Counted from the stretch's first letter, positions 13,606 to 33,040 are shown. The stretch: 64,000 bases of DNA from Dehalococcoidia bacterium (GCA_965115955.1 OZ220473.1:2389463-2453462), one strand, 5' to 3'. The notes: generated by a model from the letters alone, not told the origin. Numbers and translations are program-made.

Positions 13606-14122
13606 TCCTCAGACTAAGATGATTACGGAAGGCGCACTATTCAGTTCATTGGCAAGAAAGAATGAATAAAAGCCAAAGTCTGAAAGGTCCCGGGCTCGGT
13701 TTAATCGTTAGGCAGGATGCTGTCGAGCCTGGATAAAGGCGCGGCCCGGTACCGCAGTTGGCGCAAACCCCCGTGCATTTATTGAAGCCCCGGCCTGGGT
13801 CAAGCCTTTGGGGCAAGTTGGGCCGATATCCGGCGATTCGGCGCGTTTCCTGTTCCGCCAGGCAGGAAATACTGCATAACGGTTTCCCGCTGCGTCGTCT
13901 ACTATAACCCGGCTGCTCTTGATGCTGCCGTGTATCTGAGATGCGAATTTTGCGGATTTTCTCGTTTTATCCCGGCAGACGCAGCCGGTCCGCTTCAGTT
14001 GGTCAGGGGAATGCAGCCCTGCTCCCTCAAGGCCATGAATGGGTGTGTATGCCTGGGCGGCTTTTTCGCCGCAGCGCGCCGTTACGCTCGTCCGCCGAAG
14101 CCCCCGTAACGCAAGCACAAGT

Positions 14123-14152
14123 CAAAGGGGCGGCCCGGATGCCGCCCCTTTG
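14123..14152 (-). terminator. conserved GC hairpin of the family 3' unit (copy A)
   Basis: CAAAGGGGCGGC-CCGGAT-GCCGCCCCTTTG with perfect 12-bp arms. There is no clear U-tract. Confidence 0.5.
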
Positions 14153-14276
14153 ATTTGCCAGCGAACCGGCTTTAACGCTTTATCAACGGGGGAACGCTCC
14201 CGCCGCGCCCCGGCTCTATGATCCCGCTTCAGCTACCTCTGCGGGAGTGGGAGAACGCTCCCGCCGCGCCCCGGCT

Positions 14277-15413
14277 CTATTCGAGGAACACCAGGTTCAT
14301 GCCCGGATACAGCGTTACGCCCCGAAACTCGACCGGCGTTTCCCCGCTGATGATGATCACCACTATCTGGCCGGCGGAAACCCTGTCCAGCGTGTTCAGC
14401 CCCTCGCCCTTCAGCTCCGGGTCGTAGAACCGCCACGTCTGGGCTGCCGATGCCAGATGCCAGACCCGCGCCAGCCGCGGCCCCAACACGCCGAACACCG
14501 CCGACGGCTCGCCGAACGGCGCGGCTGTCGGCGTCGGAGTGACCGCCGGCGCAGCCGTCGGCATCGACGTGGCTGTCGGAGCGCCGACGGGCAGCAGCGT
14601 CGGCGTCGGCCCCCTGTCCGCCCTCGACGAACCTGTCCGCGTCGGCGTGTTCGTGTTCGGCGGCGTGGTGGCAGCGGCCGCGCTCGACGAACCTGCCGGT
14701 GTGGCCGTGTTCGTGTTCGGCGGCGTGGTCGCCGTTGGCGTGTTCGACGGCATCGGCGAACCTGCCGGCGCCGGCGTATGTGTTGGCGTAGGCGTGGCTG
14801 TCGGCGTATGCGTCGGCGTCGGCGTGGCCGTCGGCGTGTTCGTCGGCGCCGGTGTGTTCGTGGGCGTGTTCGTCGGCGCCGGTGTGTTCGTGGGCGTGTT
14901 GGTCGGCCCGGGGGTGTTGGTCGGCCCGGGCGTGTTGGTGGCCGTGGGCGCTGGCGACGCCTGCACAACTACTGTTATGCTGTAGCTTGCGCTTCCGGGT
15001 GTAGTACCGGCGAGGGTGTGTGAACCGACCGTCAGCGTTTCGTCTCGGACTGGTTCGCCATAATCTGTCGGCGTAAATTGCAGGCGCACCCTGACGGAGG
15101 AGACGCCATACGGCACGGTGATGGTTGCCTTGCTCATTGAATTCCGGACGGCGGAGTAACCGGAGACGCTCCGGAAATTGGCGCGTGGGTCACGGTTTGG
15201 TATTGAAACTACGCTCGCGGAAGTCTTCCCAACGCTAATAAGTACCTGCGGACTGAAGCCTGGCACCGGCGTATAGGTGTTCCCCGGCTGCGCGCTCACG
15301 GCCTGGGGCGACGCCGATTCATGGAAAAGGAAGACGGCGACAAACGCCATCGCGGCGATGGCGGCCAGGGCGATGCCAATCGGCTTGCGGTTGATACGCC
15401 GCAGGGCGCTCAT
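14277..15413 (-). CDS. paralog family member A: secreted protein with one beta-rich module, PT-rich stalk and conserved C-terminal domain
   Basis: 378 aa. Signal/anchor [24 protein letters not shown].., [12 protein letters not shown] and 2x [10 protein letters not shown] repeats, C-terminus ..[61 protein letters not shown]. The upstream leader ATG is out of frame in this copy. Confidence 0.85.
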
Positions 15414-15511
15414 CAGCGCAGCGCCAAACCCGGAATGCTGCCGGGGGGGGGGGGGGGGGTACTCCCTCTGGATCTGTTACCGTTACTCGTGCGGAGCTTG
15501 TCTGGCATCAT
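15413..15511 (-). other. leader ORF of member A (32 codons) carrying the poly-C tract, with stop overlapping the main ATG
   Basis: ATGATGCCAGACAAG.. preceded by GGAGATGGTGAAAG. It reads [35 protein letters not shown]. The A of that TGA (15413) is the A of the main ATG. Confidence 0.5.
15443..15459 (-). repeat. homopolymeric tract G17 (C17 on the coding strand)
   Basis: Counted directly. 18 nt lie between the conserved GGAGTA and GCAGCATT flanks. Confidence 0.95.
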
Positions 15512-32500: not shown

Positions 32501-32933
32501 CACGGCCACACCGACAGGTTCGTCGAGCGCGGCCGCTGCCACCACGCCGCCGAACACGAACACGCCGACGCGGACAGGTTCGTCGAGGGCGGACAGGGGG
32601 CCGACGCCGACGCTGCTGTCCGTCGGCGCGCCGACAGCCACGTCACTGCCGACGGCTGCGCCGGCGGTCACGCCGACGCCGACAGCCGCGCCGTTCGGCT
32701 CGCCGTCGGCAGTGTTCGGGGGGCTGGGGCCGCGGCTGGTGCGGGTCTGGCATCTGGAATCGGCAACCCAGACGTGGCGGTTCTACGACCCGGAGCTGAA
32801 GGGCGAGGGGCTGAACACGCTGGACAGGGTTTCCGCCGGCCAGATAGTGGTGATCATCATCAGCGGGGAAACGCCGGTCGAGTTTCGGGGCGTAACGCTG
32901 TATCCGGGCATGAACCTGGTGTTCCTCGAATAG
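29562..32933 (+). CDS. paralog family member F: mosaic protein (E-type N-terminal modules, 3 FN3 domains, long PT-repeat stalk, conserved C-terminal domain)
   Basis: 1123 aa. First ATG at 29565, alternative start at 29658. FN3 signatures include [40 protein letters not shown] and [27 protein letters not shown]. Confidence 0.85.
29617..29632 (+). repeat. homopolymeric tract C16
   Basis: Counted directly. Confidence 0.95.
32163..32432. repeat. 9 x 30-nt in-frame tandem repeat ([10 protein letters not shown] unit)
   Basis: Unit ACGCCGAC[G/A]GCCACGCCGACGCC[G/A]ACGCA[T/C] repeated head-to-tail. Confidence 0.9.
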
Positions 32934-32997
32934 AGCCGGAGCGCGGCGGGAGCGTTCCCCCGTTGATAAAGAGGTAAAGCCGGTTCGCTGGCAAATC

Positions 32998-33026
32998 AAA
33001 GGGGCGGCCCGGATGCCGCCCCTTTA
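32998..33026 (+). terminator. conserved GC hairpin of the family 3' unit (copy F)
   Basis: AAAGGGGCGGC-CCGGAT-GCCGCCCCTTT. Confidence 0.5.
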
Positions 33027-33040
33027 ACCCGCAGCCTGCG

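Follow-up and report, generated by a model that had tools for sequence, protein, structure and literature searches.

A family of six related genes, designated here copies A to F, lies within a 64,000-nucleotide (nt) stretch of the genome of a Dehalococcoidia bacterium (GCA_965115955.1 OZ220473.1:2389463-2453462), which as a whole we call the window. A first-pass annotation had described the genes as a six-copy family of secreted modular proteins with constant ends and a hypervariable, repetitive middle. When the open reading frames (ORFs) of the 64-kb window were checked, all six were present where that annotation had placed them. Two ATG codons have to be distinguished in each copy: an upstream ATG1 and a downstream ATG2, the latter opening a signal-peptide-like sequence. 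The genes, the Pro/Thr-rich (PT) stalks and other parts of their products (lengths in amino acids, aa), and the segment between the two arrays are as follows.

14277..15511, minus strand: copy A, main ORF 14277-15413 from ATG2 (378 aa), ATG1 at 15511; signal-like N-terminus, one beta module, PT stalk, C-terminal domain
15849..18059, minus strand: copy B, 736 aa from ATG1 (18059), ATG2 at 17963; leader, signal-like segment, Cys-pair FN3-like domain, two beta modules, long PT stalk, C-terminal domain
18409..20010, minus strand: copy C, main ORF 18409-19914 from ATG2 (501 aa), ATG1 at 20010; FN3-X-FN3, short PT stalk, C-terminal domain
20701..23849, plus strand: central segment with MerR/HspR-like regulator, GrpE and DnaK, enclosed by the arrays and outside the family
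24627..26915, plus strand: copy D, 762 aa from ATG1, ATG2 at 24720; FN3-X-FN3, long PT stalk, C-terminal domain
27280..29214, plus strand: copy E, 644 aa from ATG1, ATG2 at 27376; like B, minus B's 10-aa stalk repeats
29565..32933, plus strand: copy F, 1122 aa from ATG1, ATG2 at 29658; B/E-type head, PT stalk, block including fn3, second PT stalk, C-terminal domain

The two three-gene arrays (14095-20250 and 24490-33030) are mirror images of one another around the hspR-like/grpE/dnaK operon. Counted from the centre outward, the first pair, C and D, has the order FN3-X-FN3 (83-87% identity), the second, B and E, combines a Cys-FN3-like domain with two beta modules (89% identity), and the third, A and F, has its 3' halves in common (91.5% identity). 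This pairing suggests that a three-gene array was duplicated in inverted orientation and that the copies then diverged. Inverted homologous blocks between the arrays reach 1.7-1.9 kb at 89-91% identity, and recombination between the inverted copies could flip the dnaK segment and swap the 5' and 3' halves of genes. Near the arrays we recognised no ORF for a recombinase or invertase. Explanations that invoke a diversity-generating retroelement, an integron or an invertase were dropped, as the window has no evident ORF for a reverse transcriptase, integrase or recombinase.

The region is very rich in repeats, and public gene callers did not recover five of the six genes, as might be expected if the arrays were an assembly artefact made of collapsed or duplicated repeats or a chimeric contig. 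The first-pass annotation had itself raised duplicated contigs as a possible source of the repeats. However, the blocks common to the paralogues are only 82-94% identical in DNA, so the copies are not assembly duplicates, and we rejected duplication on the grounds of these differences of 6-18%. The copies also differ in module content, each unit has an intact long ORF, and the arrays are flanked by ordinary single-copy housekeeping genes. An artefact is therefore the least probable of all the readings considered here, one to which we give hardly any credence, with doubt limited to repeat copy numbers and tract lengths.

Each copy is preceded by a promoter-like site with a constant 17-nt spacer. 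Such sites are in excess in the region (11 observed versus 2.9 expected), and those of the six copies are placed as follows.

15620..15648, minus strand: promoter-like site of A, TTGACT-17-TATACT
18167..18195, minus strand: promoter-like site of B, TTGACT-17-TATACT
20107..20135, minus strand: promoter-like site of C, TTGACT-17-TAAACT
24493..24521, plus strand: promoter-like site of D, TTGACT-17-TATACT
27144..27172, plus strand: promoter-like site of E, TTGACT-17-TATACT
29428..29456, plus strand: promoter-like site of F, TTGACT-17-TATACT

The 5' unit, defined as the sequence from the -35 hexamer through ATG2 (221-235 nt), is 85-97% identical among A, B, D, E and F, and only 66-69% identical between these and C. 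The annotation had described a near-identical upstream unit with one promoter and one Shine-Dalgarno (SD) sequence in all six copies; this holds for five of them, whereas C has TAAACT in place of TATACT and a diverged leader of its own. In the other copies ATG1 is preceded by the SD sequence GGAGATGGTGAAAG, within which GGTGA lies 6 nt upstream of the start codon, and it is this GGAGATGGTGAAAG that C does not have. Every copy has the sequence TGATG at ATG2, within either ATGATG or CTGATGA. The leader RNA is no more structured than shuffled sequence (z = +1.9), and a riboswitch or thermosensor was dropped as an explanation because of this lack of excess structure. An Rfam scan of the whole window returned only a tRNA, and the leader matches no Rfam family.

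Between ATG1 and ATG2 every copy carries, on the coding strand, a tract of 15 to 19 cytosines. The tracts and the reading frames that they set in the assembled sequence are listed below.

15443..15459, minus strand: poly-C tract of A, C17; stop-start coupled frame as assembled
17989..18007, minus strand: poly-C tract of B, C15-T-C3, which is E's C19 with one interruption; fusion frame as assembled
17993-18007, plus strand: the G15 run of copy B
19944..19958, minus strand: poly-C tract of C, C15
24679..24694, plus strand: poly-C tract of D, C16; fusion frame
27332..27350, plus strand: poly-C tract of E, C19; fusion frame
29617..29632, plus strand: poly-C tract of F, C16; fusion frame

These tracts are the sole homopolymers longer than 7 nt in the window. 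The related Dehalococcoidia loci that were scanned (318 kb) have G/C runs of 10 at most and are otherwise free of simple repeats. A scan of the window for units of 2-7 nt found one other simple repeat, (GCT)6 at 60925, which lies in a membrane-protein ORF (60866-62386, plus strand) of a putative NADH-dehydrogenase (nuo) cluster. The poly-C tract lies ∼150 nt downstream of the promoter-like site and is integral to the 5' unit in all six copies, which bears out the earlier claim that each of the clustered genes has a tract of the hypermutable type. Tract lengths vary (15, 16, 16, 17, 19 and 15+T+3) despite flanks that are 85-97% identical. In B, D, E and F, the interval from ATG1 to ATG2 contains 77 non-tract nt each, and the only indel difference is the tract itself, at 16 versus 19. 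Copy C has kept its tract although its leader is only ∼67% identical to those of the other copies.

To follow the consequences for translation, we changed each tract in silico by +/-1 and +/-2 C. In A, B, D, E and F, tract length selects among three reading outcomes. In the first, ATG1 is fused in frame to the signal-peptide segment. In the second, ATG1 opens an upstream ORF of 31-33 codons that ends in ..LALR* and whose TGA overlaps ATG2 by one base, and in the third the upstream ORF is out of frame and runs 30 to >45 codons into the gene. In the assembled sequence the first outcome applies to B, D, E and F and the second to A, whose 32-codon upstream ORF from ATG1 (15511) ends in a TGA that overlaps ATG2 by 1 nt. 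Copy C behaves differently: each of its three frames meets a stop at or before ATG2, so that neither fusion nor overrun is possible. The ATG1 peptide has 18 codons up to the tract and the ending ..STPPPP, and the persistence of both in the diverged copy C argues that ATG1 is translated.

These frame relationships suggest a switch. Each gene would be its own transcription unit, with translation set by the C15-C19 tract between ATG1 and ATG2. At contingency loci, homopolymers this long slip at high rates, and changes in the frame of a leader peptide switch expression. A copy that gained or lost one C by slipped-strand mispairing would pass from one of three states to another: a fusion state, with ATG1 in frame with the signal peptide; a coupled state, in which the UGA of the 31-33-codon upstream ORF overlaps ATG2 (UGAUG) and would permit termination-reinitiation; and a predicted OFF state, in which the upstream ORF overruns ATG2 out of frame. 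The second start codon with its stop-start overlap suggests that there are three expression states, not two. By analogy with known contingency loci, we judge the chances that the poly-C tracts really switch expression to be about even.

The tract might instead be a passenger. The six genes would then be an ordinary, constitutive family of surface or S-layer-associated paralogues without a switch, the poly-C run being carried along in the duplicated 5' unit as poly-proline in a long signal-peptide n-region or as part of the 5' untranslated region, and the length differences being assembly noise or rare neutral events. Four of the six copies do read through in frame, the 5' unit was clearly inherited by duplication, and two metagenome scans gave no relative in which tract length could be compared. 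Furthermore, relatives with the same C-terminal domain have no such tract, so the function of the protein family does not need it. What makes this account unlikely in our view is, first, that a run of this length, over twice that of any other in the 64 kb and the additional 318 kb, is intrinsically unstable. The rate of slippage climbs steeply with homopolymer length, and the persistence of an unstable run in six copies, including the diverged C, implies that the tract is under selection. Second, codon usage gives no reason to expect CCC alone: CCC makes up only ∼22% of Pro codons elsewhere in these genes and CCG ∼50% (copy B, counted out of frame, is excluded), so a need for prolines fails to explain the homopolymer. 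Third, the conserved TGATG at ATG2 makes sense only if the non-fusion frames are used.

A role for the tract in translation itself is also conceivable, the 5-7 prolines of the leader peptide stalling ribosomes ∼45 nt before ATG2 and thereby tuning initiation or reinitiation, with the stall dependent on EF-P or on proline supply. Such a mechanism would suit a poly-C run that gives poly-Pro in all three frames, an upstream ORF whose length and STPPPP ending are conserved even in C, a UGAUG stop-start overlap in all copies and an unstructured leader. However, it has no need of a homopolymer, since mixed Pro codons (CCG being used ∼50% of the time) would do without the mutational cost, and as assembled B, D, E and F have no separate leader peptide because the frame fuses it to the protein. 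We consider stalling an improbable explanation, and return to slipped-strand switching after describing the proteins that it would control.

All six products share an N-terminal segment that is K/R-rich and then hydrophobic, M[MS][GA][IL]LR.I[DN]RK.IG..LAA... (protein alignment A1), as the annotation had claimed. No lipobox Cys follows the hydrophobic segment in any of the six copies. Cysteines are absent from A and C, lie at ∼104 and 161, in the first domain, of B, E and F, and occupy positions 226 and 234 in D. In a Pfam scan, fn3 was matched in C, D and F at E values of 1e-18 to 1e-23, with bit scores of 80.7, 82.9 and 65.3, respectively, against a gathering cut-off of 25; the best fn3 match of copy F is at residues 691-778 of the 1123-aa ORF. 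In B, E and F, the N-terminal domain with the Cys pair aligns with the fn3 region of P0009, a paralogue introduced below (34% identity, E 7e-9). The Cadherin-like matches of B and E are weak ones that stay under the Pfam cut-off, and the ∼95-aa modules of A, B and E give sub-threshold Cadherin-like matches at most. The cargo modules proposed earlier were thus recovered as fn3 in C, D and F, with only the sub-threshold matches for B and E. A 'cadherin-like' label for the head modules is unconfirmed, given those scores and a structure model with a predicted local distance difference test (pLDDT) value of 47. The middles are mosaics of a few module types, and to call them hypervariable was an overstatement.

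Pro/Thr-rich regions are present in all six copies, with P+T making up 23-35% of residues, and the stalks are encoded by tandem DNA repeats of 18-72 nt, in agreement with the annotation. One example is the following.

32163..32438, plus strand: stalk repeat of copy F, 30-nt unit, 9.2 copies, 97% matches, encoding a 10-aa unit

The 10-aa stalk repeat occurs 2 times in A, 10 in B, 0 in C, 5 in D, 0 in E and 9 in F. Long antisense ORFs, Gly/Val-rich or Arg-rich and up to 526 aa in length, run opposite the PT-repeat regions between 14277 and 33000. Wherever a PT stalk is present it adjoins the C-terminal domain and not the N-terminal hydrophobic segment. A search for SLH or CWB2 repeats gave no Pfam match at E <= 0.1 and no NCBIfam match at E <= 0.01. 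The proteins have no LPXTG motif, C-terminal hydrophobic segment or charged tail, and end in a folded alpha+beta domain (...NLVFLE), which is encoded at these positions.

14280-14525, minus strand: C-terminal domain of A
15852-16097, minus strand: C-terminal domain of B
18412-18657, minus strand: C-terminal domain of C
26667-26912, plus strand: C-terminal domain of D
28966-29211, plus strand: C-terminal domain of E
32685..32930, plus strand: C-terminal domain of F, 82 aa, used for the structure model

The last ∼80 aa are 85-94% identical between copies, whereas the ∼70 aa before them are common to A, B, D and F only; the constant final region of ∼150 aa reported by the annotation therefore stands in its second half for all six genes and in its first half for those four. 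Nor is the constant C-terminus private to the family. An exhaustive HMMER search with the last 87 aa as query returned 234 clusters (50% identity) at E <= 0.001. The domain ends no more than 5 residues from the C-terminus in 136 of 149 matched proteins, and 17 matched proteins contain two tandem copies. Its carriers are TIG, cadherin, fn3, S8 (subtilase) and LRR proteins, among which the IPT/TIG carriers of 800-1100 aa have a conserved N-terminal signal, MNS.IGKSTGIALL.AA.LLAALFAMGVF.... Named members come from metagenome-assembled genomes (MAGs) as 'hypothetical protein, Chloroflexi bacterium', and the genomic loci recovered with the domain belong without exception (16/16) to Dehalococcoidia MAGs, in keeping with the Chloroflexi-like host that had been suggested for the window.

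The domain follows the ∼70-aa pattern ..RVW.L....Q.W.FYDP....FNTL..V..G....I.......F.G..L..G.N...L., in which W22, W31 and N77 are invariant, and the six copies match its profile at E 4e-32 to 6e-31 (alignment A4, which itself includes three of the six). An AlphaFold2 model built from 53 sequences has a pLDDT of 92 and consists of one helix and six strands. There is no Pfam or NCBIfam model for the domain, and a fold search of the AlphaFold2 model against PDB and BFVD gave nothing below E = 0.5. When the profile was compared with PDB sequences, designed symmetric Kelch propellers (SAKe6) were returned on summed weak matches (E 1e-9, with no single stretch significant), which run through the 'RVW.L....W..YDP' hairpin motif. 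We rejected Kelch homology as a motif resemblance ('W..YDP') that depends on the summed weak matches only.

The same genome uses this domain elsewhere. Exact look-ups placed five further carriers, P0009, P0197, P0010, P0198 and P0199, on the 2,905,594-bp contig that also encodes copy C and the window's DnaK. P0009 (464 aa; two FN3 domains, PT stalk, C-terminal domain) and P0197 (343 aa, also with the C-terminal domain) are smaller PT-stalk proteins. P0010, P0198 and P0199 are TIG proteins of ∼920 aa that carry the domain, fall into one 90%-identity cluster and have a conserved signal, M[SN]RILGKSAGMALLMAA..; they are candidates for the main surface-layer protein. Within the window, a 175-aa lipoprotein (8492-9019, minus strand) with the lipobox ..GLFAC and a Pro/Glu/Thr-rich linker has a distant copy of the domain, which reads ..LWVLHIDNELQRLSTYDP...VTLYKGVNPIFWR. 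This seventh carrier in the window lies outside the cassette arrays and has no poly-C tract. Altogether, at least twelve predicted exported proteins of the organism end in the domain, at least six of them beyond the family; because the genome uses it on so many other proteins, the constant C-terminus would have a structural role beyond any cassette logic. Since the PT stalk adjoins this domain, the domain is probably the envelope-proximal docking end, with the N-terminal modules facing outward.

The family is poorly represented in public data. The public protein collection holds a full-length product only for copy C, together with 73-aa fragments that match the C-termini of A and B/F, and the ORFs of A, B, D, E and F are absent from it with each of the start codons tried. 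A word-index protein search with the domain returned only the genome's own 73-aa fragments and missed copy C, which is present in the collection. A word-index search with the N-terminal half was empty; this is weak evidence of absence because the same type of search missed copy C. Gene callers appear to fail on these six genes, which leaves such genes nearly invisible in protein databases, with one full-length product of six plus the 73-aa fragments.

The 3' end of each gene is followed by a GC hairpin, GGGGCGGC-N6-GCCGCCCC, for which we found six matches, one after each gene, versus 0.04 expected. The annotation had reported this hairpin correctly, and it can be added that there is no U-tract, except weakly in A.

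14127..14148, minus strand: 3' GC hairpin after A
15760..15781, minus strand: 3' GC hairpin after B
18320..18341, minus strand: 3' GC hairpin after C, with the loop in opposite orientation
26997..27018, plus strand: 3' GC hairpin after D
29282..29303, plus strand: 3' GC hairpin after E
33001..33022, plus strand: 3' GC hairpin after F

The six stems are identical, and the 6-nt loop, in gene orientation, is ATCCGG in three and CCGGAT in three. Template switching in the palindrome, or exchange between copies of opposite orientation, could have produced the two loop orientations. The 3' unit of copy A (14190-14279) opens with a ∼61-nt partial duplication of its own first bases (TAGAGCCGGGGCGCGGCGGGAGCGTTC...), and that of copy D (∼26935-26965) has a 14-nt duplication (TTCCCGTTGATAAA). 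These duplications are small-scale repeat dynamics within a constant unit.

Possible exchange between copies bears on a further explanation, in which the G15-19 run on the template strand forms a G-quadruplex (G4) or i-motif that starts gene conversion among the cassettes, module shuffling being its main role. In Neisseria, a pilE-associated G4 starts gene conversion by way of a nick or stall in replication, and a tract of 15, the minimum length seen here, would by our own reckoning be just enough for a three-tetrad G4 with single-G loops. The copies are mosaics with common blocks in different combinations, the arrays are both inverted and tandem, and the hairpin loops occur in both orientations. 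However, common blocks that are only 82-94% identical do not point to conversion in the very recent past. A translational switch also accounts better for a tract that sits exactly between two ATGs and has frame-dependent outcomes, and we regard a G4 function as highly improbable.

Taken together, the locus is best read as encoding surface proteins that are tethered to the envelope and expressed under slipped-strand phase variation, an explanation that we favour and to which, as a whole, we give an even chance of being right. With more confidence we propose that the six genes encode exported, docked surface proteins; this is quite probable from their sequences, and the annotation was very probably right that they are secreted or surface proteins whose ends are constant and whose middle is modular and rich in repeats. 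Export would proceed by the N-terminal Sec-type signal or signal-anchor. The head, comprising one to six Ig-like/FN3 modules, would be the variable part, and the Pro/Thr-rich stalk, probably extended, would vary in length through the copy number of its in-frame tandem repeats. The globular C-terminal domain (∼70-80 aa) most likely serves to attach the protein to the envelope or surface layer. Six independent switches, together with recombination between inverted and tandem copies and changes in the stalk repeats, would give a mixed surface in a clonal population. The most plausible purpose would be escape from phage or grazers, or altered adhesion.

Several considerations count against this explanation. 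The fusion frame is found in 4/6 copies and the predicted OFF frame in none, a distribution that is not significantly different from chance (the probability that none of five switchable copies is in the predicted OFF frame is (2/3)^5 = 0.13); four fusion frames and no OFF frame could equally fit a stable, in-frame tract. The tract in C must do something else or be a relic, because C cannot reach a fusion or overrun state. The six tracts descend from one ancestral 5' unit by duplication and are not six independent occurrences. Long-read assemblies are prone to errors in the length of C15-19 runs, which makes the assembled frames provisional. Two metagenome scans, one with the 5' unit and one with the C-terminal domain, gave no close relative or second strain, and the genome is not among the GTDB representatives (best match 54%). 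On the protein side, export and cleavage were judged by eye from the sequence, and the putative docking role of the C-terminal domain was deduced from its position and distribution. An AlphaFold2 model of the copy B head, based on an alignment of B, E, F and A only, was all-beta with a pLDDT of 47 and was unusable for a fold search.

Among known systems, the closest logic is that of opa and pilC in Neisseria. PilC has a poly-G run in the region of its signal peptide. The Opa proteins have CTCTT repeats in the sequence coding for the leader peptide, ∼11 paralogues and switching at ∼1e-3 per cell per generation (PMC3745409), and homopolymeric tracts in coding sequences are established in Neisseria (PMC5320596). 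Like Opa and PilC, the present genes form a multi-copy surface-protein family with conserved ends, variable middles and an own transcription unit per copy, in which a simple repeat in 5' coding or leader-peptide sequence sets the frame and copies could switch independently. A long simple repeat within 5' coding or leader sequence is present in 6/6 copies, and a one-unit change shifts the protein frame in A, B, D, E and F, but not in C. Whereas Opa is an outer-membrane beta-barrel, the proteins described here have FN3/Ig-like modules, a PT stalk and a novel C-terminal domain, and their host is a free-living member of the Chloroflexota rather than a host-adapted proteobacterium. A further difference is the second in-frame ATG with its UGAUG overlap, which would allow three outcomes versus ON/OFF. 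The system would thus act like contingency genes of the Opa/PilC type with unrelated proteins.

The annotation had instead compared the family with Mycoplasma vlp/vsa. The Vlp, Vsa and Vsp systems consist of clustered paralogues with a conserved 5' expression and export end, size-variable tandem repeats and a homopolymer per gene. The vlp switch is a homopolymer in the promoter spacer, whereas vsa and vsp use site-specific inversion that moves one expression site. The genes described here resemble these systems in their clustering, conserved 5' end, variable tandem-repeat region and homopolymer by each gene. The likeness nevertheless fails in its essentials. The six-gene family has no lipoprotein signal or Cys after the hydrophobic segment. 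In contrast to vlp, the tract lies outside the promoter spacer (17 nt in 6/6), downstream of the promoter and between the two ATGs. In contrast to vsa and vsp, every copy has a promoter and no site-specific invertase or vrs-type sites were seen. The conserved globular C-terminal domain is a further distinction from all three.

For the shared domain, the nearest parallel is the Cwp family of Clostridioides difficile, many paralogues with variable domains and one docking module in common with the main S-layer protein (PMC4737114, PMC3080850). One of them, CwpV, is phase-variable, shares its cell-wall anchor with the S-layer proteins and protects against phage (PMC4737114, PMC3080850). Here too, one C-terminal domain is common to the six genes and three ∼920-aa TIG proteins of the same genome. 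However, the putative docking module is a single ∼70-aa C-terminal domain without a Pfam or PDB match rather than three CWB2 repeats, the ∼920-aa TIG proteins are presumed S-layer proteins, and the putative switch is a homopolymer as opposed to the RecV-inverted DNA element of CwpV. By analogy with CwpV, phage pressure is the most plausible selective agent. MSCRAMM/LPXTG adhesins consist of a signal peptide, an Ig-like/FN3 head and a Pro/Thr-rich spacer by the C-terminal attachment end, an order of parts that recurs in the six-gene family. The six proteins differ from LPXTG adhesins in that they end in a folded domain with no sorting signal, and from SLH- and CWB2-anchored proteins in that they have no such repeats.

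Three features next to the family complete the description of the region. The best sigma-70-like match in the region (TTGACA-17-TATCAT, 11/12; 20632-20660, plus strand) lies just upstream of the MerR/HspR-like gene, the first of the grpE-dnaK operon. Two ORFs adjoin the arrays, one of 113 aa upstream of D (24104-24445, plus strand) and one of 223 aa beyond A (12934-13605, minus strand), and neither has a Pfam match.

The C-terminal domain, widespread in Dehalococcoidia, with a confidently predicted fold and so far unannotated, is a marker of surface proteins and a candidate module for envelope docking in bacteria about whose cell envelope little is understood. More tentatively, and with somewhat less than an even chance in our estimation, the locus may be a combinatorial contingency system in an uncultured, free-living member of the Dehalococcoidia, in which six three-state switches and palindromic shuffling of modules and stalks would act on proteins docked through an unrecognised domain that they have in common with S-layer-like proteins. 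Phase-variable surface families are textbook devices of pathogens and commensals, and to our knowledge combinatorial contingency systems have so far been described almost only in host-adapted bacteria. The annotation knew of no description of such a system in a Chloroflexi-like genome, and we likewise found, among the papers searched, none that ties Chloroflexi/Chloroflexota to homopolymer phase variation or contingency loci. If the proposed switch is real, this would be the first slipped-strand phase-variation system in Chloroflexota, most likely driven by phage or grazers, and it would mean that stochastic surface switching is also used by environmental bacteria, presumably against phage or predators.

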